The translations under genes were made by a program, and so were the position numbers. The notes below the pieces were generated by a model, which worked only from the letters and a program-made list of their open reading frames with translations, had not been told where the DNA came from and searched no databases. Positions 3,545 through 37,013 of a DNA stretch of 42,560 nt are shown here, piece after piece (position 1 is the first letter of the stretch; each line of letters starts with the position of its first letter). Origin of the DNA: a virus; IMG/VR virus record IMGVR_UViG_3300002461_000092, positions 1 through 42,560 of that record; one strand, written 5' to 3'.

Positions 3545-4063
3545 ATGTGCCTCCCCGTTCTCGGGGCTCTCGCCAGTGTCGGTAGTGCCATCGCCGGTTT
3601 CGCCGGAGCACAGCAGCAGGCGGATGCCCAAAACGCCTACTACCTCGCCAACGCAGCCGAAGCCAACCGCGCGGCGGGGCAGCAGTTCGTCAATCTGAAC
3701 ATCAAGTCCGACCAGACCCGCGCCTCCGCGCAGGGTGAGGCCTTCGACCAGTCCATCGAGGCCCTCCGCAAGCGCTCCACCGCACAGGTGGCCGCGTCTG
3801 AGGCAGGCGTCTCCGGGCTCTCCGTGGATGCCCTCATCGGGGACATTTACGCGCAGGAAGGCCGCCGCTTCGACCGCCTCGACCAGCAGTACCGCGCCGA
3901 TGAGATGGCCGTCAGGTCGCAGATGGATGACGTTCAGGCCAACGCCCAGCAGCGCATCAACTCCGTCCAGCGGGCCGAGCAGCCGTCGCCCCTCTCCTTC
4001 ATCTTCCAGGGTCTCTCCGGCGCCGTTAACGGCTTCAAGATGCCCGGCATGGGAACCGTCTAA
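3545..4063 (+). CDS. internal virion protein B-like (T7 gp14 position)
   Basis: 172 aa, with a hydrophobic N-terminus (LPVLGALASVGSAIAGFAG) followed by a Gln/Ala-rich helical region. The position between gp13- and gp15-like genes is syntenic. Confidence 0.55.
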   Translation: MCLPVLGALASVGSAIAGFAGAQQQADAQNAYYLANAAEANRAAGQQFVNLNIKSDQTRASAQGEAFDQSIEALRKRSTAQVAASEAGVSGLSVDALIGDIYAQEGRRFDRLDQQYRADEMAVRSQMDDVQANAQQRINSVQRAEQPSPLSFIFQGLSGAVNGFKMPGMGTV

Positions 4064-6613: not shown

Positions 6614-9600
6614 ATGAGCAGCATCACTGACGAGCTGGCTGGCGACCCCATTGAGGTGGCGGCCCCCGCCCCCACGACCGAGCAGCAGCTCAACTACGAC
6701 GCCCTGATGAACGCCCCGGCCCCCTCCGCCCCGTTCGTCCCCGGCGACCGGCCCCTCGACCAGGCCTTCCAAGCCCTCCCCCGCAGCGCAAACATTGACG
6801 ACCGCCGAGGCTACCGTGGGATGCGTGAGCGGGCCAACATGGCCATCCGCGACCGCGCCAACGAGGTGATGGCTGCTGACTTCGCCCGCCGCGAGGTCGA
6901 GGCCGAGAGCACCGACACTATCGCCGCGATGCAGCTCATGGGGGAGACCCCCCAGTTCCCCGACATTCAGGACGTGGCCCCCGATCCGGCCCCGGCCGAC
7001 AACTTCGACGGCAGCGACGGAGCCCCGGTGGACGACGCCGCGGCCGCCACCCGCCGCACCCTTGAGATGCCCGTTGGCGGCTACCCCGACGACATCGCCC
7101 CGCCCGCCCCGGCCGCTACGGCGGTCGAGCAGGCCCCTCTCCCGGCCCCGGCTACTACCCCCGCTCCCGCCCCCTCAACGCCCGTCCAGCCCCCCTCTCC
7201 GGCCCAGCAAGTGGCCCCCGAGGACGGGCAGCCGCAGGTCCCGCAGGGCGTGTCCCCCAATGGCGTCCTCACCGCGGTTACCCCCGGCGGTGCCGGCTAC
7301 GACGAGTACACCCGCCGCCTCCGCATTCAGGAGAGCAACGGCGTGGTGACGGCCAAGGCGCCCACCTCCTCCGCCCGCGGCCTCTACCAGTTCCTTGACG
7401 ACACGTGGGGCATCGCAGGGCGCACCCGTAACGGGCAGCCCGTGGGCCTCGCCAACACCCCGACAGGGCAGGCCGCCGGCCTCCGCCCGATCAATCCCGC
7501 GGACGTGGGCACCCCCCGCGACCCGCGCTTCGACCCGGCCCAGCAGGAGATCGCGATCAGGCTCTTCACCGAGCAGAACGCCGAAGCCCTCCGCCGCGGT
7601 GGTCACCCGGTCAACGGTCGGAACCTCTACCTGGCCCACTTCATGGGCTCTGGTGGCGCCCTCCGAATGCTCCGGCTGGTGAGGGACAACCCCGACCTCC
7701 CCGCCGCCACCGTCTTCCCCGACGCGGCCGGCGCCAACCGCAACGTCTTCTACACCCGCGAGGGCCGCGCCCGCTCCGTCTCCGAGGTCTACCGTCTCCA
7801 GACGGCCCGCTTCTCCGACGACGCAGTGGTCACCGAGCGCCCCCAGCGCCGCGTCACCGACCCGCTCGGCCCCGCCGATATGTCCCGTCCCCCGGCCATC
7901 GAGCTGGGCAGGGGCTACCGTGAGGGAGAGCAGGCCGCCATCCGTGCCCTCCGGGGCGAGGAGCAGCGCTCCTTCTTCCAGCTGGTGGGCGATGCCTTCC
8001 AGCGAGAGACCCCCGAGGGTGCCCTCCTCCGACAGGGCCCCGCGTTCACCGAGGAGCCCGGCTGGGCCACCCCGGCCAACCTCAAGCCCTACTTCGACCA
8101 AATCCCCGCGGGCTTCGAGAGCCGCCTATCGCAGGCCATCTCCCCCGCCCACGCGGACTGGATCGTCAAGAAGGCGAAGCAGGACAGCGTGATCGACAAG
8201 GCCATCGAGGAGGCCGGCTGGACCGGCACTGGTGCCTCCGTCCTCGCCTCCTTCCTCTCCCCCTCCGTGTGGGCCATCGGGATCGCCTCGGGCGGCCTCG
8301 GCAGTCTCGCCGCGGGCTCCTTCCGCCTCGGTAAAGCCGGCTCCCGCCTCGCGGGTGCGGCCATCGGTGCGGCTGGTAACGTCGCCTATGAGGGTGCCGT
8401 CGCTGGCATCAGCGGGGACGAGTACGGGGCAGGCGAGGCGTTCGGCGCGGCCATCACCGGTGCCATCTTCGGTGCCGCCTTCGGTCCCATCGGACAGAAC
8501 CCGGCCACCTCCGCCGAAGCCCTGGCCCTCGCCCGGGCAGCTCGCCGCCACGCGGACGACATCATCGGGGGTGACCAGCCCGCCCACGTCCGTGGCCCCG
8601 CCGCGGCAGGCGCAGGCGTCTCCGCCGACCCCAACCTCCCCGAGGTGACGGACAACCCGGCATGGCGTGCCCTGACCGACGCTGCGTTCCAGCGCGGCTC
8701 CGGCAACGCGGTCGCGGACAACCTCCGCATCTCGCTCGGCGGCCAGCTCGCCGTCTCCCCCAACGTGGGCACCCGCGCCGTCGCGAGCGGCCTCGTGGTG
8801 GACGTGGTGGGCAAGGGCGCGGCCGTGAACCACAACACCGCGGATCAGAACATGATCATGCTGGCCCAGCGGTTCCAGTCCCAGTACCTCTCCGTCACCG
8901 ACCCGGCCTACCGCGAGTGGGCCGAGGAGGAAGGCATCGGCTTCTTCGGCCGCCTCATCGGGCGCCGCCGCGAGGAGTTCATGAACACGATCGGTCGGGC
9001 CATCCTGACCGCCACGGACGACGAGATCGCCCAGCTCCCGCCCTCCATGCAGCGCGTCATCAAGGCGCACGGTACGTGGGTCGTGGAGCGCCTGAACGAG
9101 CTACAGGACCCGAGCCTCGTGTTCGGTCCCCGGCAGTTCCGCCGCGGCGTCCCCGGCTCTGAGAACCTCACCCCCGACGCCCGCTACATGCCGGTCCTGT
9201 GGGCCGAGCACAAGATGCAGACGGCCCTCGACAGGGTTGGCTACAACCGGCTTGAGACGTTCATGGCCGGCGCCATCAAGAACGTGCAGACGGAGATTGA
9301 CGACGACCTGGCTCGCCGCCTCGCCGCCGCCATCATCCGTGGCCCCAAGGACCGCATCGCCGGAGCCGACGACGCCATCTCCCGGGCGCTCGCCCACGCT
9401 GACGTGGAGAAGCTCAAGACCATCCTCAAGTCGGACTACGACTGGGAGGACAAGGCCCTCGAAAGCCTCGTCGCCCAGCTCAGCCGCTCCAAGCCGCGCG
9501 TCGAGGGCTTCCTCAACCGCCGCATCGGGATGAACTACCGAGCCGAGATGCAGCTCCCCGATGGCTCCGTGCTCCGCATGACGGACCTCATGGAGACCAA

Positions 9601-11156: not shown

Positions 11157-13649
11157 ATGAGCACCCCTTCCTTCGCCACCTACACGGGTGACGGGTCGAA
11201 CAGCCAGTTCGTCGTCCCCTTCCCCTACCTCGATCAGGCGCATGTGAAGGTCTACGTCAACGGCACCTCGGTCACCTTCGGGTGGCTGGGGGCCGGCTTG
11301 ATCCAGACGACCGCGGCGCCCGCCAACGCCTCCACCGTCTTGATCCGTCGTGAGACACCGGCCGATACGCCGCTGGTGGACTACGCGAACGGCAACGTAG
11401 TCCTCGACAGCGACCTCGACATCGCCACCCTCCAGGCCCTTTACGTGGCGCAGGAGGCCATCGACCTCGTCAACGAAGGCTTCTCTCTCGACGCCTCGCA
11501 GAACTGGGACGCCAGTAACAGGCGCATCTCTCGCGTGGCCGACCCCGTCGCCGGCACCGACGCGGCCAATCGGCAGTGGGTTCTCACGCAGACCGCCATC
11601 CCCGGCCCTCAGGGTCCTCAGGGTCCGCAGGGTCCCATCGGCCCAACCGGCCTGACCGGCCCTCAGGGTCCTCAGGGTGAGCCCGGCCCGACTGGCGCCA
11701 CCGGCCCGGCTGGTGCTCAGGGCCCCCAAGGTGTCCAGGGTCCGGCTGGTCCGCAGGGCCCGCAGGGCGTCCAGGGTGAGCAGGGCCCGCAGGGCAACTC
11801 CTTCACCCCCGACATCGTCGCGGCGAGCACCCTCCGCTCGACCTACGACGCCGAGCCCGCCGGCTTCTCGTTCCTCGCCACGGACCTCGGCGCGATCTCC
11901 TTCAAGGACACCAACACCTCTGGCGACTGGTCCGACTGGGTCCCGTTCGGCCGCGGCCCGCAGGGTCCCGCCGGCTCTCAGGGTCCGCAGGGCATTCAGG
12001 GTCCGCAGGGCATCCAAGGCATTCAGGGCATCCAAGGCCTCAAGGGGCTCAACTTCCGCGGCGCCTATAGCTCCGGCACTACCTACGCCACGGACGACGT
12101 GGTGCGCGATCAGGGCTCTTCGTGGGTCGCCAAGGCGAACACCACGGGCAACGCCCCGCCCACCCTGCCGACCGTCGAGAATGCCTTCTGGTCCCTCCTC
12201 GCGCAGAAGGGCTCGGACGGCTCCAGCTCCGCCTCGGCGGTCTCCTTCACGCCGGCCGCTGGCATCTCAGCGACGAACGTGCAGGCGGCCATCGAAGAGA
12301 GCGTGGCGGACACCGACACGAAGCTGGCGGGGAAGGCGAACACCTCCCACGGCCACGCCATGTCGGACGTCTCTGGCCTCGACGCGGCTCTCGCGGGGAA
12401 GGCGAACACCTCCCACGGCCACGCCCAGTCGGACATCACCGGTCTCAGCACCACCCTCTCGGGCTACATGCCCCTGACGGGCGGCGGCTTCACCGGGCCG
12501 GTCTCGATCACGGTAGACAGCACGGCGGTCGCGCAGACCATCACGCGATACAGCGCCACTGCCGGCATCCAGCTGCGCCGGTCCAACGGCACGGTGGGTG
12601 CCCCCACGGCGGTCGCTACCGGTGACATCCTTACCAGCCTCCCCGCCTTCGGCTACGATGGCTCCAGCTTTGTCGCTGGGTCCTACATCCGGGCCATCGC
12701 CCGCGGCACGATCTCCGCAGGCAGGGTCCCGATGTCCATCGTGTTTGGGACCATGAACGCCGCGGGAACGCTCGCGGATCGGATGGAGCTGACCGAGGAG
12801 GGTGTCCTGCTCGTCGGCGGTCAGCCGGTCGGCGGCGCCCCCCTCCAGGGCACCTCGCTGAACGATCAGACCTTCGACAGCTCGGGGACGTGGACCAAGC
12901 CGGCGGTTGCTGGCACCTGGGCCTTTGTCGAGATTTGGGGTGGCGGTCAGGGTGGTGGCCGCGACGTCGCCAACTTCAACCGCCTCGGCGGAGAGGGTGG
13001 CGAGTACGTAGCCTTCGCCGTCCCCTTCAGCCACCTCCCGGCTTCCGCGGCTGCAACCATTGGAGCCGGCGGCGCGGGCCGCACGGCCAACTCTGGTGGC
13101 TCGGCCGGCACCGCTGGGGGCAACACGACGTTCCTCGGCGTTACGGCCCGCGGCGGACACCTCAGGGCCAATGCCGACTTCAGTGCCTACCTGAAGCGCG
13201 GGATGCTCAACCCCGTCGTGAACTTCGGCGCCCTGATCGTGGAGCCCGGTGGCTCGTGCATCCTCGACACGAACACAAACCCTGGCTTCACCATGTTCGC
13301 GACCGCGAACGACTTCGACCCCGTGACCGGCCGCTTCGCGCCTGACATCCGCCCGATCACTGGTCAGACCTCCTCGCTGGCCGAGACGGGGCGGCAGTGG
13401 AACGCCGCGTCCGCCTATGGCACCCCGACCGACTCCCGGTTCTCCGGGGGCACCGGCCAGGGCTTCAACAACAGCAACGTCTCGATCCCCAACACGGCCT
13501 CGACCTTCGGTGGCTCGGGCGGTGCTGGAGGCGCCACCAACGGCGTTGCGGGCTCCAACGGCATCGCTCCCGGCGGTGGCGGCGGCGCCGGTACGAACGC
13601 CAACGGCGGTGCCGGTGCGTCCGGTCGCGTCCGCATCCGCATCTTCTAA
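11157..13649 (+). CDS. tail fibre protein (T7 gp17-like N-terminal adaptor, collagen-like repeats, HxH fibre repeats, Gly-rich C-terminal domain)
   Basis: The N-terminus [32 protein letters not shown] is the T7 tail-fibre N-terminal domain pattern. There are two G-X-Y blocks and duplicated [10 protein letters not shown] units. The C-terminus is GGGQGGG...[25 protein letters not shown]. Confidence 0.85.
11604..11795 (+). repeat. collagen-like G-X-Y block 1 (21 triplets) inside the tail fibre
   Basis: [64 protein letters not shown]. The DNA is built from reiterated GGTCC(T/G)CAGGG(T/C) units. Confidence 0.9.
11955..12053 (+). repeat. collagen-like G-X-Y block 2 (11 triplets) inside the tail fibre
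   Basis: [33 protein letters not shown]. Confidence 0.9.
12327..12425 (+). repeat. 66-nt-period tandem duplication inside the tail fibre (33-nt identical cores at 12327-12359 and 12393-12425)
   Basis: GCGGGGAAGGCGAACACCTCCCACGGCCACGCC occurs twice. It encodes [11 protein letters not shown], an HxH phage-fibre repeat. Confidence 0.9.
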
Positions 13650-16327: not shown

Positions 16328-16350
16328 ATTTAACTCCTACACTTGCCTAA
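16328..16350 (+). promoter_or_regulatory. phage RNAP promoter candidate P-right (ATTTAACTCCTACACTTGCCTAA)
   Basis: One of three 23-bp near-identical elements. It lies 12 nt after the large terminase stop, analogous to T7 phiOR. Confidence 0.7.
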
Positions 16351-17084: not shown

Positions 17085-17115
17085 TTGACTGCCAAGGCGG
17101 GATGGTGTCTATAGG
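17085..17115 (+). promoter_or_regulatory. sigma70-like early promoter candidate 1
   Basis: TTGACT, a 17-nt spacer, then TCTATA (or TATAGG with a 19-nt spacer). It overlaps a copy of the ACTGCCAAGGCGGGA motif. Confidence 0.35.
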
Positions 17116-17297: not shown

Positions 17298-17316
17298 AAA
17301 TCACTGCCAAGGCGGG
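17298..17316 (+). repeat. intergenic motif copy, type A (TCACTGCCAAGGCGGG), abutting the -35 of early promoter 2
   Basis: A 16-nt core identical to the copies at 19570 and 27836. Confidence 0.7.
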
Positions 17317-18834: not shown

Positions 18835-19569
18835 ATGTTCCCTTTCGACTGGCTCAAACGGCGCCTAGAGGCTGCCAAGGCAGGAGCAAGACGCATGGCT
18901 AGCACGAGCAGCTACAGAACCCCGCATGAGGTGCGGGAGGCAATCGACGGGATGGCCGGGGACGACTGGCTCCAGCAGGCCATCGAGCACTGGCAGTGGT
19001 CCGGCGCCCAATGGTGCTACCGCACCGACAAGGCCACGCCGCGGCTGGGCCCGCCCCCGCTCGCCGTGTTGGCCAACTTTCGGTACTCCGTGGTGGTCAC
19101 CCACCTGATGGGCTCTGGCCTGAACCTGCTCGGTAAGGGCTGCTACGGCGCCGTCTTCGAGCTGAGCCCGGATGACCGGTGGGTTTACAAGCTGGTCGCT
19201 GTGTCCCGCAACGTGCCCTACCTGTCCTACGTCCGGTGGGCCAGGGAGATGCGTACCGGGCCGAACAAGCGGGATGCGTGGGTGCGGTGCCTGCCCCGCG
19301 CCAAGATACTCTTCGAGGACAAGTGGTTCGCCCTGATCCGGGTCGAGCGGCTGGTCGAGCAGCGCGGCAAAGTCACGGCATACGACGCCGGCGAGCACAT
19401 CGCGTACACCTCGACGCCCGGTACCCCGGCGTTCGAGCCCTACCTCGAAGCGACCGACCGCATCAAGCGGTGGTCCCGGTTCTGGAACGACATGCACACC
19501 GGCAACATCATGCTGCGCCCCACCAAGTGCGGCACCTACGAGCCCGTCCACACCGATCCGGTGTGCTGA
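18835..19569 (+). CDS. protein kinase-like early protein (functional analogue of T7 gp0.7?)
   Basis: Gly-loop LGKGCYGAV, VYK lysine, catalytic-loop-like DMHTGN (D-x4-N), and a terminal TDP in the DFG position. The protein ends right after it. Confidence 0.5.
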   Translation: MFPFDWLKRRLEAAKAGARRMASTSSYRTPHEVREAIDGMAGDDWLQQAIEHWQWSGAQWCYRTDKATPRLGPPPLAVLANFRYSVVVTHLMGSGLNLLGKGCYGAVFELSPDDRWVYKLVAVSRNVPYLSYVRWAREMRTGPNKRDAWVRCLPRAKILFEDKWFALIRVERLVEQRGKVTAYDAGEHIAYTSTPGTPAFEPYLEATDRIKRWSRFWNDMHTGNIMLRPTKCGTYEPVHTDPVC

Positions 19570-19586
19570 TCACTGCCAAGGCGGGA
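19567..19586 (+). repeat. intergenic motif copy, type A (TGATCACTGCCAAGGCGGGA)
   Basis: 20/20 identical to 27833-27852. It starts with the kinase-like gene's stop codon. Confidence 0.85.
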
Positions 19587-19615: not shown

Positions 19616-19843
19616 ATGTCCATCACTGCGAAAGCGCCCGCCTCCCGCTCCTACCCCTACGTGGGCGGCCTCAAGTCCGAAGCCCGCCGCGAAGCCGGCG
19701 ACGAGCGTATCGTCCTGTTCACCGGCCCCGGTAAGGGCATCCAGATCGGCGGCAACATCGGCACCATCGGCGACGCGGCCAGCAACTGGCGCGAGGACTG
19801 CTTCGACCCGCTGCCCCGCGGCACCGCCCTCTACGTCGCCTGA
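19616..19843 (+). CDS. hypothetical early protein
   Basis: 75 aa, with AAGGAG 8 nt upstream of the ATG. Confidence 0.5.
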   Translation: MSITAKAPASRSYPYVGGLKSEARREAGDERIVLFTGPGKGIQIGGNIGTIGDAASNWREDCFDPLPRGTALYVA

Positions 19844-19860
19844 TCGCTGCCTAGCCGGGA
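19841..19860 (+). repeat. intergenic motif copy, type A variant (TGATCGCTGCCTAGCCGGGA)
   Basis: 17/20 identical to the consensus. It spans from the stop codon to the A of the next ATG. Confidence 0.6.
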
Positions 19861-22260: not shown

Positions 22261-22280
22261 CAACCACTGACAAGGCGGGA
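22261..22280 (+). repeat. intergenic motif copy, type A variant (CAACCACTGACAAGGCGGGA)
   Basis: 16/20 identical to the consensus. It lies upstream of the peptidase-like gene. Confidence 0.55.
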
Positions 22281-23291: not shown

Positions 23292-23381
23292 ATCGACCCC
23301 CTGCTTCTGGCCGTGTTCATCCTCCCGATCCTGTGGGTGGCAGTAGCCATCATCATCGCGGGGTTGACGGGCCATCTTTAG
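23292..23381 (+). CDS. possible small hydrophobic peptide (start codon unclear)
   Basis: A high-GC3 frame encodes ...LLLAVFILPILWVAVAIIIAGLTGHL. AGGAG lies 6 nt before ATC 23292. The first canonical in-frame start is GTG 23313. Confidence 0.25.
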   Translation: MDPLLLAVFILPILWVAVAIIIAGLTGHL

Positions 23382-23436
23382 GCTTGCAGTCCTACCGAGG
23401 AGACCCTATGCCTACCGTGAACAAGAGGAGAACAAC

Positions 23437-23694
23437 GTGAGTGCGTACCTGACTGACACACCCCCCGACCACGACACGGTGTGGGGGTGGCTGGCCCGCA
23501 ACGAGCCGTGGGTGCTGGGCACGATGTCCGACCCGGTGCTGGGCTGCTTGGGGGACCAGACCAAGGCCATGGAGTTCGCGCAGAGAGCCGGGCTGGAGTT
23601 CATCCACGTGCCCGCCCCGCCCGCTCTCCGGGCCCGGGGCATCCCCGAAGCCTTCGCCTTCCCTACCTCCGTGCTACACGACGTGTTCCCCTGA
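23437..23694 (+). CDS. hypothetical early protein
   Basis: 85 aa, with a GTG start and GAGGAG upstream. A 10-codon upstream ORF ends in GTGA at this start. Confidence 0.5.
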   Translation: MSAYLTDTPPDHDTVWGWLARNEPWVLGTMSDPVLGCLGDQTKAMEFAQRAGLEFIHVPAPPALRARGIPEAFAFPTSVLHDVFP

Positions 23695-23711
23695 TTGCTG
23701 ACAGGGCGGGA
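23692..23711 (+). repeat. intergenic motif copy, type A variant (TGATTGCTGACAGGGCGGGA)
   Basis: 16/20 identical to the consensus. It starts at the stop codon of the upstream ORF. Confidence 0.55.
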
Positions 23712-23746
23712 CGGGAGTAGGCTGGCCTCCGAAAGGAGACCTTCCC

Positions 23747-24121
23747 ATGCGTGACCTTCCCCTAGCCTACCTCAACCCCCTCGCCACCGTGTTCCGAGAG
23801 CTGCGCGAAACCTACCAAGACATGACGGTAGCCCAAGCCCTGGCCTTCACCACGATTGCGTCCAACCCCGGCATCCCGATGAAGCGGATCGAGCAGCTGA
23901 CCGGCCTGTCCGACAGCTCCGTGTCTCGCATCTGCCACATCCTCGGGTCGCAGGGGAACCGGAAGACCGAGCCCCTTCATCTGGTCTACCACCAGCCCAT
24001 GCCCGACGACGCTCGGGTCCTCACCATGCACCTCACCCAGCGAGGCCGGCACCTAGCCCAAACCCTCGCCAGCGAGATCAAAGGAGCACGACAGGATGTC
24101 CGCCCGCCGCAAGAACGGTAG
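23747..24121 (+). CDS. MarR-like winged-helix transcriptional regulator
   Basis: 124 aa. MTVAQALAFTTIASNPGIPMKRIEQLTGLSDSSVSRICHILG...DDARVLTMHLTQRGRHL fits the MarR wHTH pattern. Its 3' end overlaps the integrase start by 26 nt. Confidence 0.6.
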   Translation: MRDLPLAYLNPLATVFRELRETYQDMTVAQALAFTTIASNPGIPMKRIEQLTGLSDSSVSRICHILGSQGNRKTEPLHLVYHQPMPDDARVLTMHLTQRGRHLAQTLASEIKGARQDVRPPQER

Positions 24122-25136
24122 CTGGATGGCCGACTTCATGGTGGCGGGCACCCGCTACCGGGAGTTCGGCTTCCCCGCCGAGAAGGACGCCCAAGCGTGG
24201 GAGATGGATGCCCGCTCCGCCCTGCTGCGGGGCGCCCCCGTCCCCAAGCCCCGCCACGTGGTGGCTGAGGCCCGCTCCGAGCACACCATCGGGGCCCTCG
24301 TGCGCCACGTCGCCAAGGTCCACTGGTCCAGCAAGAAGTCCGCCAAGGGGCTGATCCTCCAGGCCGAGCTGTTCGCCCGCTTCTGCGGCGACGATGCCCC
24401 TGCCGTGGACTGCCTGACCACCGCCAAGCTGGACGAGTATGTCGGCAGCCTGATCGGCAAGGTTGCGGGCGGCACCATCAACCGCCGCCTCGCCGCCGTG
24501 TCCAAGCTAGCCCGCTACGCCGTGGCCCTCGGCCTCATCCCCGCCATCCCCCTCATGTCCCGCCAGCAGGAGAGCCGGGGCCGGCTGCGGTACTTCTCCG
24601 AGAAGGAGGAGCACCACATCCTGAACACCCTGACCTTTTGGGGGCTGCGCGACGAGTACCACCTGTTCGTCTTCCTGTCCGACACCGGAGCCCGCCTTGG
24701 CGAGGCCCTCAAGGTGGAGTGGGGTGACATCCACCCCAACGGTCGGGCCATCACCCTGTGGGACAACAAGGACCCCAGCGGGCGGGGCAAGTTCCGCACC
24801 ATCATCATGACCGAGCGGGTGCAGCGCACCATGGAGCGGCGGCGGGCCACCCACGGGGACGACCCCGGGCCCTTCTCGTCCATCTCCAAGCGCCGCCTCC
24901 GCACCGTGTGGTCCCGCCTCCGTGAGCACCACCCGTTCCTCGGGGACGCCGTGATCCACACCTTCCGGCACACCTGTGCGTCCCGCCTGGTGATGGCCGG
25001 CCTCGACCTCACCCGTGTCCAGAAGTGGCTCGGGCACGACACCATCCAGACCACCTTGCGCTACGCCAAGCTGGCCCCCGAGGCCATGGAGGACGTGGTC
25101 GCTGCGCTGGAGCGGGGGCCCAAGGCGGTGCGGTGA
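24096..25136 (+). CDS. int: tyrosine recombinase / phage integrase
   Basis: 346 aa. TGARLGEAL supplies the catalytic Arg. HTFRHTCASRLVMAGLDLTRVQKWLGHDTIQTTLRYAKL supplies HxxR...H...Y. The N-terminus KNGSWMADFMVAGTRYREFGF is typical of an arm-binding domain. Confidence 0.9.
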   Translation: MSARRKNGSWMADFMVAGTRYREFGFPAEKDAQAWEMDARSALLRGAPVPKPRHVVAEARSEHTIGALVRHVAKVHWSSKKSAKGLILQAELFARFCGDDAPAVDCLTTAKLDEYVGSLIGKVAGGTINRRLAAVSKLARYAVALGLIPAIPLMSRQQESRGRLRYFSEKEEHHILNTLTFWGLRDEYHLFVFLSDTGARLGEALKVEWGDIHPNGRAITLWDNKDPSGRGKFRTIIMTERVQRTMERRRATHGDDPGPFSSISKRRLRTVWSRLREHHPFLGDAVIHTFRHTCASRLVMAGLDLTRVQKWLGHDTIQTTLRYAKLAPEAMEDVVAALERGPKAVR

Positions 25137-25150
25137 CACACCCGGTGACA
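25131..25150 (+). repeat. two tandem CGGTGACA repeats (12-nt period); candidate integrase arm-type sites
   Basis: CGGTGACAcaccCGGTGACA. Further copies are CAGTGACA at 25173-25180 and CGGTGACA at 25403-25410. Confidence 0.4.
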
Positions 25151-25182
25151 GACCGGCCCGATCCTGCTATCCCAGTGACAGT

Positions 25183-25269
25183 GCGGGTGTGGCGGAATTG
25201 GTAGACGCGAACGGCTCAAAACCGTTTGCCTTCAATGGCTTGTCGGTTCGACCCCGGCCACCCGCACCA
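25183..25269 (+). tRNA. tRNA-Leu (anticodon CAA), type II with long variable arm and encoded CCA
   Basis: Manual fold: acceptor GCGGGTG/CACCCGC, 3-bp D stem GCG/CGC, anticodon stem AACGG/CCGTT with loop CTCAAAA, variable arm GCC-TTCAAT-GGC, T arm GTCGG-TTCGACC-CCGGC, discriminator A, then CCA. Confidence 0.9.
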
Positions 25270-25402
25270 CCCCCAGCACCGGTCTCAAAATCCAGGGCCC
25301 CACCGCCCCGCCCTGGTAGCATTCCCCTAACCCCCTGACCGCAAACGCAGAACCGCTGCGCCCCTGCGCTCGCCCCGATCATCCCTACTTGGCAGCATAT
25401 TC

Positions 25403-25410
25403 CGGTGACA
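25403..25410 (+). repeat. CGGTGACA repeat downstream of the tRNA
   Basis: The same 8-mer (9-mer CGGTGACAC shared with 25131) lies on the other side of the tRNA. Confidence 0.35.
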
Positions 25411-25441
25411 CGTGGCACCACTGACAATCTGAGGAGAACTG

Positions 25442-27835
25442 ATGCAGAACATCGACCTTGAGCAGCGCATGAGAGACGCCGGCGTGGCCCGCGCCCGGAC
25501 CATTGCCGCCCGTGCCGCTGACCGTGGGGTCATCTCCGAGACGCCGGCCGGGGTGGCCGCCATCCGCAACCTGATCCGCCCGACCACGCTCAAGATTGCC
25601 GAGTGGATGGTCGAGACGGAGGCCCGCACCTCGGGCAAGCGCGGCCGGCCACCCCACCTGTTCCGCCTGTGCGGCGGGATGGACCCGGAGGTCCTCGCCT
25701 ACCTGACCAGCAAGGTGGCCATCGACAAGGCCGCCTCCGGCCACTCCCTCACCCGCCTCGCCAGCGCCGTGGGCATGGCCATCGAGGACGAGCTGCGCCT
25801 AGCTGACTTCGAGGCCGCCGACCCCGGCCTGTTCGGCGCCATCGAGCGCACCCTGCGCCAGCGCTGCTCCAGCCCCGAGCACCAGCGCAAGGTGTGGAAC
25901 GCCAACGCCGTGAAGCGAGGCATCGAGATCACCCGCTGGACCAAGAACGAGCGGGTCAACGTGGGCCTGACGCTGGCCGACCTGTTCATCCAAGCGTCCG
26001 GCCTCATCGAGACCTACCTCATGCCCCTCGGCCGCAACCGCTGGCAGTACCAGACCCGCCTCACCGCCGCCGCCCGGGCGTGGATGGAGGACCGCACCGA
26101 CAAGGCCGGCCTCCTCCGCCCCATGTACCTGCCCACCACCCAGCCCCCGCTGCCGTGGGCGGACACCATTGGTGGCGGCTACGGGCTGGACAAGCTGGTC
26201 CCCATGCCGCTGGTCAAGCGCACCTACCGTGCCCACGTCGAGGCCCTCCAGGCCGCCGATCTGAGCCGGGTGTACCGCTCCCTCAACGCCATCCAAGACA
26301 CGGCTTGGCGGGTCAACACGCCCGTCCTCGACGTGATGAAGGAGGCGTGGGACCGGGGCCTGCTCACGGACATCCTGCCTGCCCACGACGACCGGCCGCT
26401 TCCACCCCGGCCGGACGCGCCCCCCGACAGCGACGAGTTGCGGGCGTGGAACAAGGCAGCCCGTGACACCTACGAGTTCAACGCCAAGTCCCGGGCGCAG
26501 CGGCTTGAGTTCGCCCGCCTCCTCGGGCTGGCCGACGAGCTGCGTGACGCCCCGGCCCTCCACTTCCCCCACCAGCTGGACTTCCGGGGCCGGGTGTACG
26601 CCGTGCCTGCCGGGCTCAACCCGCAGGGCCCCGACGAGGCCCGGTCGCTGCTCACCTTCACCCACGGTAAGCCGGTCGATGGCTCCGCCTTCTGGTGGCT
26701 GAACGTCCACGGTGCCAACACCTTCGGCTTCGACAAGGTGTCGATGTCCGAGCGGGCCCAGTGGGGGCAGGATAACAGGGCCCGGGCTGCGTCCGTGGTT
26801 GCCGACCCCCTTGGCGACCTGTGGTGGACTGAGGCCGACAAGCCGTGGTCCTTCCTAGCGTGGTGCTTCGAGGTGTGCCGCACTGACGGCCTGTCCTCCC
26901 TCCCCATCGCCCTCGACGGCACGTGCAACGGCCTCCAGCACTTCTCGGCCATGCTCCGTGACCCGGTGGGCGGCGCCGCGGTCAACCTCACCCCGTCCTC
27001 CAGCCCGCAGGACATCTACCAGCGGGTGGCCGACCGGACCATGGAACTGCTCCGCGTCCGGGCCGCCGAGGACAACCACTGGATGGCCCACGGATGGCTC
27101 GCCTTCGGGATCGACCGCAAGATCACCAAGCGGCCGGTCATGGTGCTGCCTTACGGCGGCACTCGGATCAGCTGCATGGACTACGTGCGGCAGGCCGTGA
27201 AGGAACGGATCGCCGGCGGGCAAGAGAACCCCTTTGGGGACCAGCTCCAAGCCGCCACCACCATGCTGGCGTCCGTCGTGTGGGACGCCATCGGTGACGT
27301 CGTGGTCGCCGCCCGAACCGCCATGCAGTGGCTCCAGTCCGCAGCCCGGGCCGCCACCGCAGCCGGCCTCCCGTGCAGCTGGGTCACCCCCTCGGGGTTC
27401 CCCGCCCATCAGGAGTACCGGGAGGTGAAGGGCCGGCAGATCAAGACCCGGCTCCGCGGGGGCATCATCGCCCCCCTCGATTACGGCGAGGTGGACCGCC
27501 TCGACCGCAGCAAGCAGGCCCTCGGCATCTCGCCCAACTTCGTCCACTCGATGGACGCTGCGGCGCTGGCCCTGACCATCTGCGGCTGCCTCGATGAGGG
27601 CATCACGTCCTTCGCCATGATCCACGACAGCTACGGCACCGTGGCTGCCGACACCGACGCCCTGGCCCGGACCCTGAGAGAGGAGTTCGTTCGCATGTAC
27701 GAGCAGCACGACGTGCTTGCCGAGTTCCGCGACCACCTCCTCGCCCAGCGCCCGACGCTGGAGCTTCCTCCCCTCCCACCGAAAGGCTCCCTCGACATCG
27801 CGCTGGTCCGCCAGAGCCCCTACTTCTTCGCCTGA
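25442..27835 (+). CDS. T7-like single-subunit DNA-directed RNA polymerase
   Basis: 797 aa. Motif A is LPIALDGTCNGLQHFSAMLRD, motif C is MIHDSYGT, and the C-terminus ends in YFFA. GAGGAG lies upstream of the ATG. Confidence 0.97.
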   Translation: MQNIDLEQRMRDAGVARARTIAARAADRGVISETPAGVAAIRNLIRPTTLKIAEWMVETEARTSGKRGRPPHLFRLCGGMDPEVLAYLTSKVAIDKAASGHSLTRLASAVGMAIEDELRLADFEAADPGLFGAIERTLRQRCSSPEHQRKVWNANAVKRGIEITRWTKNERVNVGLTLADLFIQASGLIETYLMPLGRNRWQYQTRLTAAARAWMEDRTDKAGLLRPMYLPTTQPPLPWADTIGGGYGLDKLVPMPLVKRTYRAHVEALQAADLSRVYRSLNAIQDTAWRVNTPVLDVMKEAWDRGLLTDILPAHDDRPLPPRPDAPPDSDELRAWNKAARDTYEFNAKSRAQRLEFARLLGLADELRDAPALHFPHQLDFRGRVYAVPAGLNPQGPDEARSLLTFTHGKPVDGSAFWWLNVHGANTFGFDKVSMSERAQWGQDNRARAASVVADPLGDLWWTEADKPWSFLAWCFEVCRTDGLSSLPIALDGTCNGLQHFSAMLRDPVGGAAVNLTPSSSPQDIYQRVADRTMELLRVRAAEDNHWMAHGWLAFGIDRKITKRPVMVLPYGGTRISCMDYVRQAVKERIAGGQENPFGDQLQAATTMLASVVWDAIGDVVVAARTAMQWLQSAARAATAAGLPCSWVTPSGFPAHQEYREVKGRQIKTRLRGGIIAPLDYGEVDRLDRSKQALGISPNFVHSMDAAALALTICGCLDEGITSFAMIHDSYGTVAADTDALARTLREEFVRMYEQHDVLAEFRDHLLAQRPTLELPPLPPKGSLDIALVRQSPYFFA

Positions 27836-27852
27836 TCACTGCCAAGGCGGGA
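27833..27852 (+). repeat. intergenic motif copy, type A (TGATCACTGCCAAGGCGGGA)
   Basis: 20/20 identical to 19567-19586. It begins with the RNAP stop codon and abuts the phage promoter. Confidence 0.85.
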
Positions 27853-27874
27853 TTAAACTCCTGCACTTGCCTAA
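27852..27874 (+). promoter_or_regulatory. phage RNAP promoter candidate P-middle (ATTAAACTCCTGCACTTGCCTAA)
   Basis: 21/23 identical to 16328-16350. It lies directly after the RNAP gene, at the head of the DNA metabolism module. Confidence 0.75.
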
Positions 27875-35008: not shown

Positions 35009-35284
35009 GTGTACGTGATCGCTAACCCGGCATGGCCGGGCTACGTGAAGATCGGCACCGCCCTCGACCTTAAAGACCGCCTCAAGGTCTACAACACCGG
35101 CTCCCCGTTCAGAGACTTCGCCATCACCGCCGCGGCCCGCTTTAAGGACCGGAGGGCGGCTGAGCGCCGTCTTCACGGGGAGCTTAAGGGCCTCAGGGTG
35201 GGGCGCACCGAATGGTACAACCTCCACCCCCTCGACGCCCGCAACCACCTCATAAGGCTGACAAAGCAGGAGCACTGTCAATGA
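35009..35284 (+). CDS. GIY-YIG superfamily / T5orf172-like domain protein
   Basis: 91 aa from GTG 35009. The sequence reads YVIANPAWPGYVKIGTALDLKDRLKVYNTGSPF...ERRLHGELKGLRVGRTEWY. I trimmed the track ORF 34796..35284, which overlaps the polymerase gene. Confidence 0.55.
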   Translation: MYVIANPAWPGYVKIGTALDLKDRLKVYNTGSPFRDFAITAAARFKDRRAAERRLHGELKGLRVGRTEWYNLHPLDARNHLIRLTKQEHCQ

Positions 35285-36756: not shown

Positions 36757-37013
36757 CCAGCGCCCGCATCGACCGCACCGGGGGGCAATCTGGCCCCTCG
36801 GGATTTAAGTCATACACTTGCCTAACGCCGACCGAAGTTCCCCTCAAGGTTCCACCTATCGAGGATGTTCTGGTCGCGTACCTCAATCATGCGTTCCCCG
36901 ACAGCCTACGTCTCGTGTCCACCCTCGGCTCAATCGAGGCGGCCCACGGCGCCCGTGCAGTCGTGGACCACATGATTGAGCTTTATCGACAACAGAACAC
37001 AAAGGACACCTGA
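36753..37013 (+). CDS. hypothetical protein (contains the late promoter candidate)
   Basis: 86 aa. The ATG overlaps the previous stop (ATGA). There is no in-frame start downstream of the promoter. Confidence 0.4.
   Translation: MTSARIDRTGGQSGPSGFKSYTCLTPTEVPLKVPPIEDVLVAYLNHAFPDSLRLVSTLGSIEAAHGARAVVDHMIELYRQQNTKDT
36803..36825 (+). promoter_or_regulatory. phage RNAP promoter candidate P-late (ATTTAAGTCATACACTTGCCTAA)
   Basis: 21/23 identical to 16328-16350. It lies about 450 nt upstream of the portal gene, embedded in a small ORF. Confidence 0.7.

Follow-up and report, generated by a model that had tools for sequence, protein, structure and literature searches.

The sequence analysed here is a viral genome record of 42,560 nucleotides (nt) (IMG/VR record IMGVR_UViG_3300002461_000092, positions 1 to 42,560), referred to below as the window, in which all genes lie on the + strand. 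Directly upstream of the gene for a T7-type RNA polymerase (RNAP), the window carries genes for a MarR-like regulator, a tyrosine integrase (Int, gene int) and a tRNA-Leu(CAA) (Table 1). The regulator and integrase open reading frames (ORFs) overlap by 26 nt (24096-24121), and the tRNA gene, the single tRNA found by ARAGORN in the whole window, starts 46 nt past the integrase stop codon. The positions, lengths and common orientation of these genes agree with the original prediction, which was made from the letters alone; its reading of the segment as a lysogeny-type module directly upstream of RNAP, with tRNA-Leu as integration target, is supported. The module is quite probably a lysogeny cassette, and the window the free circular form of a temperate-type T7-like phage; in this reading there is a phage attachment site (attP) between int and RNAP, a core that copies a tRNA anticodon loop, a replacement tRNA and repression by the MarR-like protein.

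Table 1. Features of the cassette region of the window (positions as in the window; aa, amino acids).
Feature	Position	Strand	Remarks
Conserved small ORF	23437..23694	+	85 aa; directly upstream of the regulator gene
MarR-like regulator	23747..24121	+	ORF, 124 aa
Tyrosine integrase	24096..25136	+	ORF, 346 aa
Left-arm repeats	25132..25181	+	Region; three direct copies of GTGACA (25133-25138, 25145-25150, 25175-25180)
tRNA-Leu(CAA)	25183..25269	+	Complete, CCA encoded; ARAGORN and Rfam
Predicted attP core	25284..25292	+	CTCAAAA (25284-25290) plus TC; anticodon-loop copy; predicted crossover
7-bp hairpin	25292..25316	+	CCAGGGC...GCCCTGG; begins at the core
Right-arm repeats	25404..25427	+	Region; GGTGACA (25404-25410), CTGACA (25421-25426); near-palindrome GGTGACACGTGGCACC (25404-25419)
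T7-type RNA polymerase	25442..27835	+	Pfam RNA_pol, E 6e-103; PHROG 414, E 2.6e-250

The window combines a single-subunit RNAP with T7-like replication and structural genes, as expected of a T7-like phage: T7-type SSB, endonuclease I, primase-helicase, DNA polymerase, terminase and tail protein are all encoded on the same contig as the cassette. Its ends are exact repeats of each other over 94 base pairs (bp), so that the window is regarded as a circularly assembled, non-integrated genome. The identical sequence was also found as 42,593-bp contigs in activated-carbon metagenomes (PRJNA301005).

Relatives were gathered via integrase homologues, RNAP-based genome loci and IMG/VR, and are given below by locus number (L) where they have to be told apart. 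A single-protein integrase scan of IMG/VR yielded no close relative. Two integrase homologues were rejected as cassette relatives, namely P0014 from Ancylobacter, which lies in a different, non-T7 context and has no tRNA, and P0007 (64% identical), which also lies in a different context.

The integrase matched Pfam Phage_integrase (PF00589, E 1.6e-16) and PHROG_1 (E 5e-45). In an alignment of 56 homologues R200, K225, R291 and Y323 were invariant and H314 nearly invariant, in agreement with the catalytic set named in the original prediction; H288 was conserved in a four-phage alignment only, its column in the larger alignment being neither invariant nor nearly so. Judged by these residues, the protein has the Arg, Lys, His-x-x-Arg, His/Trp and Tyr nucleophile of a tyrosine recombinase. 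The AlphaFold2 (AF2) model, with a predicted local distance difference test score (pLDDT) of 91, comprises an N-terminal domain (residues 4-44) of a three-strand sheet plus helix (strands 4-6, 9-16 and 19-26, helix 29-44), a linker, a core-binding domain and a catalytic domain. Regarding full-length lambda Int (1z1g, 1z1b, 5j0n), the template modelling (TM) score was 0.63-0.65 over 341-347 columns; no sequence match from the window integrase to lambda Int was detectable in the PDB search. The modelled fold suggests a lambda-like (heterobivalent) integrase with an N-terminal domain of the arm-binding type. The highest identities to named phages were 36% to Mesorhizobium phage Lo5R7ANS (vB_MloP_Lo5R7ANS, KM199771), 32% to Rhizobium phage Pasto (MT708545) and 32% to Pseudomonas phage LUZ100 (OP329100).

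The seven bases of the tRNA anticodon loop (CTCAAAA) recur 14 nt 3' of the window tRNA, at 25284-25290. The same kind of loop copy lies 11-24 nt 3' of the tRNA, on the same strand, in the relatives. It was present in all of the first seven loci with a + strand tRNA-Leu between int and RNAP, in 10 of 10 when L042, L034 and L035 are joined to these (L038 left out), and in 12 of another 16 loci, from IMG/VR, in which int is immediately followed by a + strand tRNA, the overall tally being 19 of 23 loci with three anticodons. The copy tracks the anticodon: CAA goes with CTCAAAA (window, L026), TAA with CTTAAAA (L027, L031, L006) and TAG with TTTAGGT (Lo5R7ANS, L019). The chance of a given 7-mer in a 25-nt stretch, estimated from base counts, is about 0.002 per locus.

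Four relatives (L031, L034, L035 and L050, integrases 36-47% identical) are integrated, and each shows in order int, an intact phage tRNA, the loop copy, the 3' half of a host tRNA-Leu and host flank; because host flank follows, these junctions are unambiguous. The clearest layout is that of Xanthobacter sp. YC-JY1 (L031, complete chromosome, integrase 47% identical), which reads terminase, early genes, MarR gene overlapping int, three copies of GGTGACA, a complete tRNA-Leu(TAA), 21 nt and CTTAAAA, the latter fused to a 3' half that comes from another, non-identical tRNA-Leu(TAA), after which come the host genes azlC and azlD. The L034 junction has the anticodon TAA, and that of L035 has CAA and reads ...ggaCTCAAAAtccgc... 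on to CCA; the IMG/VR locus L050 has the same type of junction. In three Xanthobacter prophages (L004, L005, L012) half a tRNA-Cys, cut at the anticodon loop, lies about 200 nt 5' of RNAP; this half tRNA on the RNAP side indicates that in this clade the crossover takes place at the anticodon loop of the host tRNA and that the phage site lies between int and RNAP.

Among the informative relatives L042 is the closest, with an integrase 79% identical to that of the window and an identical tRNA. The window reads ...caccggtCTCAAAATCcagggcccc... at the junction region and L042 reads ...cactggtCTCAAAATCgagttccgcaaggagtgctggttcga, where its contig ends. It matches the window through CTCAAAATC and then continues with an anticodon stem (3' strand), followed by a long variable arm and then a T arm; most simply, this sequence would be an attR junction. 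The loop copy and the junctions of the relatives together place the window core at 25284-25292, and the sequence comparison suggests that, between int and RNAP, the window has an attP with a match to a host tRNA gene. The hairpin which begins at the core is kept in L026 through one compensatory change (CCAGAG...CTCTGG), and TCCAG in its 5' strand is identical to the 3' side of the anticodon stem in the tRNA-Leu(CAA) of L032. Fold prediction indicated no unusual RNA structure in the right-arm region (z = 0.02), with a hairpin predicted within it.

According to the proposed mechanism, the whole intergenic region between int and RNAP (~25130-25430) would act as attP, with a three-box left arm, the tRNA, the core and a two-box right arm. 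If recombination took place with the anticodon loop of a tRNA-Leu(CAA) gene in the host, the prophage would come to lie between the two halves of that gene, with RNAP at one prophage end and MarR-int-tRNA at the other. The predicted attR is ...ACCGGTCTCAAAA joined to the tRNA-Leu 3' half, and the predicted attL is the tRNA-Leu 5' half joined to CTCAAAATCCAGGGCC. A different layout, put forward in the original prediction, has attP embedded in the phage tRNA, so that integration would swap part of it with the host gene and leave a hybrid tRNA at each junction. Many tRNA-targeting phages have their core within a tRNA-derived segment, cyanophage P-SSP7 has a 42-bp tRNA-Leu match beside int, as cited in 10.1101/410191, and the four of the 16 IMG/VR loci with a tRNA past int that have no downstream loop copy may work in this way. 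However, in L031, L034, L035 and L050 the phage tRNA remains complete and its sequence differs from that of the host half following the loop copy, the junctions lying at this separate copy 11-24 nt downstream, and the loop copy of the window sits at the expected distance. A core inside the tRNA is thus very unlikely for the window.

The same kind of target came up in other loci as well. L032 (JGI Ga0335397_10036869, positions 1-400) and L033 belong to a non-T7 element with VirB8/9/10-like genes, in which the 5' half of a tRNA-Leu(CAA) ending in CTCAAAA is followed by ~160 nt of low-G+C sequence with AGGTGCA repeats and by a complete tRNA-Leu(CAA). The complete tRNA is nearly the same as the window tRNA in its acceptor, D and T arms, and its anticodon arm agrees with the window core in 11 of 12 positions; this may be a conjugative element which uses the same split-and-replace route on the same target. 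In L036 (Logan SRR12762294, positions 7066-7330) the own tRNA-Leu(TAA) of a T7-like prophage is split at the anticodon loop by a low-G+C segment with AGGTGCA repeats, which looks like a second element targeting the spare tRNA of the prophage. Past the core 'gaCTT', L038 (7166-7380) and L036 (7270-7500) contain group I intron-like sequence (…caattggagtgcccgcagggaaatctgcggagtagaaccgctcaaagtcggggaacgctaacggg…); the host tRNA-Leu(UAA) of these loci apparently has an anticodon-loop intron and yet served as the bacterial attachment site (attB).

The window tRNA scored 52.7 bits against the Rfam tRNA model (gathering score 29) and has the cloverleaf, long variable arm, CAA anticodon and 3' CCA of a type II tRNA-Leu. 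Its sequence is identical in L026 and L042. Among 12 tRNA-Leu genes carried by homologous elements the cloverleaf is conserved, and 19 of 23 pairs show compensatory changes. In L035 the phage tRNA is not a copy of the host gene, as acceptor stem, anticodon stem and variable arm all differ. No tRNA 3' half was found in the window sequence past the core, so integration would leave the host tRNA-Leu(CAA) gene in two pieces. With the host gene destroyed and no 3' half supplied by the phage, the phage tRNA-Leu(CAA) would take over, and on sequence grounds it most likely replaces the split host tRNA-Leu: the complete tRNA with CCA, the kept cloverleaf, the non-host sequence, the rarity of UUG codons and the match between anticodon and core make compensation the best explanation. 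It might be supposed instead that the tRNA is carried mainly for the translation of phage UUG codons, its site beside int being incidental, since phage tRNAs often supplement codon usage. This is highly improbable here, as UUG accounts for only 19 of 929 phage leucine codons (2%) and UUA for none, the anticodon varies among CAA, TAA and TAG in the relatives and always matches the adjacent loop copy, and the tRNA stays with the attachment-site boxes even where int is 1.4 kb away.

Such boxes were found on both sides of the core in all lineages examined, with a lineage-specific motif (GTTGCGG in L006, GTGTGCCA in Pasto, GTGTCG in LUZ100 and GCGACA in L034). Two to three left-arm boxes with ~12-nt spacing between the int stop codon and the tRNA also occur in L026, L040, L042, L027, L031, L035, L036 and L038. 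A right-arm-type pair lies directly 5' of RNAP in L026, L027 and the Xanthobacter prophages L004, L005 and L012, and in Lo5R7ANS it lies 5' of the operon that leads to RNAP; in the latter phage the boxes remain beside tRNA and core though int (1.4 kb) and RNAP are both more than 1 kb off. The right-arm boxes of the window adjoin the RNAP ribosome-binding site, and the placement is similar across the lineages examined. GTGAC-type repeats lie near every integrase that has the N-terminal motif ADF..RYRE. As in lambda, a three-domain integrase goes together with a predicted attP in which repeated, putatively arm-type boxes stand on either side of a short core, that of the window being ~300 bp long; unlike in lambda, the core resembles the anticodon loop of a tRNA, the left arm contains a complete tRNA gene, and no excisionase was identified. 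On account of this lambda-type anatomy the boxes are assigned to the N-terminal domain of Int: by analogy, the left-arm boxes are probable arm-type sites of the integrase, and by sequence the right-arm boxes are probable arm-type sites and/or a MarR operator.

Regarding the small ORF upstream of the regulator gene (85 aa), no Pfam or PHROG family was found even at E<=5. An ORF of 80-104 aa occurs in the equivalent position in L026, L027, L031, L034, L035, L036 and L038, matched by position only; the ORF may belong to the module, e.g. as an excision factor. An extra ORF of 60-67 aa lies between int and the left-arm boxes in L026 (11029-11232) and L042 (1755-1937) and is absent from the window. 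In L026 the MarR-like ORF is extended to 192 aa and its overlap with int is lost.

The regulator matched PHROG 9665 ('transcriptional regulator') with an E-value of 1e-16, and gave no PDB sequence match at E<=1. Its identity to gp10 of LUZ100, gp11 of Lo5R7ANS and gp007 of Pasto is 25-33% (Pasto 26%). The AF2 model of the regulator follows the helix and wing order of MarR, and its top 50 PDB matches are all members of the MarR family (TM ~0.5, best E 1.3e-3). The model suggests a MarR-like winged-helix protein, which is a candidate lysogeny repressor; translationally coupled to int, it would be the likely repressor that silences the RNAP gene in the lysogen. The RNAP-proximal site GGTGACACGTGGCACC is a palindrome with 14 of 16 symmetric positions, and relative L027 has the inverted repeat GTCACC-N9-GGTGAC at the RNAP-proximal site, which together make this site the best candidate operator for a dimeric MarR-like repressor. 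Such an operator would fit the published model of RNAP repression by MarR, as outlined in PMC10134795.

It was also considered whether the GTGACA boxes are operators of the MarR-like protein and not arm sites of Int, with at least the RNAP-proximal pair serving repression. The model of Boeckman et al., in the form relayed by Putzeys et al. (PMC10134795), has MarR sites flanking a promoter 5' of RNAP; besides the palindrome of the window and the inverted repeat of L027, Pasto has GTGCCA...TGGCAC at the RNAP-proximal position. However, the left-arm boxes are direct repeats with ~12-nt phasing beside a tRNA that needs to be expressed, and in the prophage they would be 40 kb away from RNAP. The boxes are also symmetric around the core as in a lambda-type attP, and Int has an N-terminal domain of the arm-binding type. 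Lo5R7ANS and the window have the GTGACA box and the Int motif ADF..RYRE in common, whereas the MarR recognition helix of Lo5R7ANS resembles that of phages with other boxes. Operators in place of arm sites are accordingly possible but doubtful, and the assignment of the boxes to Int is preferred. It is unlikely, though conceivable, that transcription of RNAP is blocked by an integrase complex, which might act alone or share GTGACA half-sites with the MarR-like protein, so that integration and lytic shut-off would be one event. After integration, the promoter of the split host tRNA-Leu gene would point directly at RNAP.

No intrinsic terminator was found in 23300-25500, and no phage-type promoter was found upstream of the RNAP gene, which is presumably transcribed by host polymerase running through the cassette. 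A phage-promoter-like 23-mer (ATTTAACTCCTACACTTGCCTAA) occurs in three copies only with up to two mismatches (16328-16350, 27852-27874 and 36803-36825; 0 expected by chance). The copies lie 3' of the terminase gene, directly 3' of the RNAP gene and 5' of the structural genes, respectively, and are probably promoters of the phage RNAP. A separate 17-nt motif (ATCACTGCCAAGGCGGG) was observed in six + strand copies (three exact), which lie at the borders between early-region genes (17085-17101, 17300-17316, 19569-19585, 19843-19859, 22263-22279 and 27835-27851; ~0.17 expected by chance). Two copies adjoin TTGAC-type hexamers and one adjoins the promoter-like 23-mer past RNAP. The motif, of which no exact copy was found in the relatives L026 or L027, could be a regulator site.

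Several observations weigh against the reading of the locus as a lysogeny cassette in the form given above. The regulator scored 26.8 bits against Pfam MarR_2 (PF12802), below the cut-off of 27.0 and over residues 25-66 only, and its AF2 model is of low confidence (pLDDT 56; helices 6-22, 28-39, 45-52 and 56-66, a short wing and helix 98-117). No sigma-70-like promoter was found in 23300-25500. The L042 contig ends 35 nt into the half tRNA, so that a 3' half borne by the phage itself is possible there. A strict pairing of the GTGACA box with the Int N-terminal motif failed, as integrases with other types of N-terminal domain also have GTGAC-type repeats beside them, and the link between box and N-terminal domain is loose. 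The search for integrated copies which had been suggested in the original prediction was successful for relatives, found at split tRNA-Leu genes, and unsuccessful for the window phage itself: genome and metagenome scans yielded neither an integrated copy of it nor its host attB. An exact-pattern scan with the tRNA 3' end and core found nothing in IMG/VR, and in JGI metagenomes only the unrelated conjugative element. Every copy of the window integrase lies on circular 42.6-kb contigs or on one short fragment. Finally, no stable lysogens were obtained for LUZ100 (PMC10134795), and T7-like cyanophages integrate without forming lysogens (Shitrit et al., PMC8776855), so that an intact cassette is no proof of a temperate lifestyle.

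The last points, together with the free circular contigs, would also suit a phage that is lytic in nature, like LUZ100 and the cyanophages, the cassette being a relic or serving transient integration only. Against this stand the intact state of all parts and the residence of relatives as prophages in isolate genomes, including a complete Xanthobacter chromosome. The ratios of nonsynonymous to synonymous substitution rates (dN/dS), calculated against close relatives, were 0.27-0.37 for the integrase, 0.14-0.20 for marR and 0.24-0.32 for RNAP, which points to purifying selection on all three genes, that on int and marR being similar to that on RNAP. A relic or purely transient role is therefore improbable, and the cassette of a temperate-type phage remains the preferred reading. 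The nearest genome-borne relatives are Xanthobacter and Mesorhizobium prophages (RNAP 41-50% identical) and a Xanthobacter integrase (47%); a reasonable guess for the host would be a Hyphomicrobiales-like alphaproteobacterium.

Comparable systems have been described before. Zhao et al. (10.1101/410191) annotated MarR, int and RNAP in 13 pelagiphages and showed experimentally, by sequencing and polymerase chain reaction (PCR), that integration occurs at an attP between int and RNAP. In HTVC011P and HTVC025P a tRNA-Leu lies 3' of int and 5' of RNAP; the core of HTVC011P is 3' of the phage tRNA, and HTVC025P disrupts the host tRNA, its own tRNA being 'likely used instead' (10.1101/410191). Environmental attR reads comprised int, an intact tRNA-Leu and a 3' tRNA-Leu end (10.1101/410191). 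These two pelagiphages differ from the window in their SAR11 hosts and in the anticodon (TAG instead of CAA); HTVC011P carries a partial tRNA that repairs the host gene, which the window does not have. The integrases of the related pelagiphages HTVC200P and HTVC119P are ~30% identical to that of the window.

In LUZ100, as in the window, the genes for a MarR-family regulator, tRNA-Leu, tyrosine integrase and RNAP form a single early block, and there is a loop copy (GACTTAAAAGGTC) between int and RNAP. LUZ100 differs in the position of the tRNA, which lies between marR and int on the opposite strand, and in a phage-type promoter 5' of RNAP. A host-type promoter drives the co-transcription of MarR and int in LUZ100 (Putzeys et al. 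2023, PMC10134795). At 3912-3930 of LUZ100 the anticodon-loop copy acagaCTTAAAAggtct, flanked by GTGTCG/CGACAC repeats, forms a candidate attP core; attP is not mentioned in the LUZ100 paper (PMC10134795). According to Boeckman et al. 2022, in the part relayed in PMC10134795, Pasto integrates into Agrobacterium, and MarR was proposed to repress the RNAP gene. Pasto shares with the window the gene order zinc peptidase, small ORF, helix-turn-helix regulator overlapping int, tRNA-Leu and RNAP, as well as a loop copy (CTTAAAA) between repeated boxes; it differs in ~2 kb of extra genes from int to tRNA, a tRNA on the opposite strand, its box GTGTGCCA and the anticodon TAA. Lo5R7ANS, the best match in the phage database for integrase and RNAP DNA, has gp11, integrase, tRNA-Leu and RNAP, with GTGACA(A) boxes on both sides of the tRNA-Leu and loop copy and the Int N-terminal motif MADFMVAG.RYRE, as in the window. 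Unlike the window, it has a restriction-modification pair between int and tRNA, three genes between tRNA and RNAP, and the anticodon TAG.

The arrangement of MarR, int, tRNA-Leu and RNAP is not new, having been published for pelagiphages, Pasto, Lo5R7ANS and LUZ100, and the original prediction was mistaken in taking the combination of MarR and integrase as uncharacterised, as it was already known from the 13 pelagiphages (10.1101/410191) and from LUZ100 (PMC10134795). Its view that integrase-bearing T7-like phages are mainly marine does not hold either: the closest phage-database integrases are from T7-like phages of non-marine, often high-G+C hosts, namely Mesorhizobium, Rhizobium/Bradyrhizobium, Pseudomonas, Bordetella (BB8) and many Ralstonia phages, with Pelagibacter and Roseobacter phages at ~30%, and T7-like prophages occur in Xanthobacter, Mesorhizobium and other genomes. 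The window phage is a new, well-preserved member of the known integrase-bearing T7-like phages. Current understanding is unchanged by it, because the pelagiphage work had already shown the design experimentally. With it, a high-G+C member from a drinking-water carbon filter joins a growing set of T7-like phages with a working-looking lysogeny cassette, which adds to the evidence that virulence is not uniform in the family and is relevant to the screening of phages for therapy and to the reading of viromes. The crossover at the loop copy beside the tRNA, the phage tRNA as a spare and the recurrence of this design in most relatives examined have been made testable. Destruction of the host tRNA with replacement by the phage may be an ancestral, general strategy of integrase-bearing T7-like phages of marine and soil hosts alike, and not one peculiar to pelagiphages.

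Three further observations concern a relative and other parts of the window. L006 (LVWT01000027.1, 42,271 bp), assigned to the metagenome-assembled genome Nitrospira sp. SG-bin2, carries a MarR-like gene, int, tRNA-Leu(TAA), a loop copy and a T7-type RNAP, and is either a mis-binned free phage or a hint of a Nitrospira host. A small ORF at about 35009-35284, just past the DNA polymerase gene, gave a T5orf172/MUG113 (GIY-YIG-like) match on the identical contig and is possibly an insertion of the homing-endonuclease type. Collagen-like Gly-X-Y repeats with a 9-nt period lie at 11568-12046 inside the large late ORF 11157-13649, presumably a tail fibre gene.

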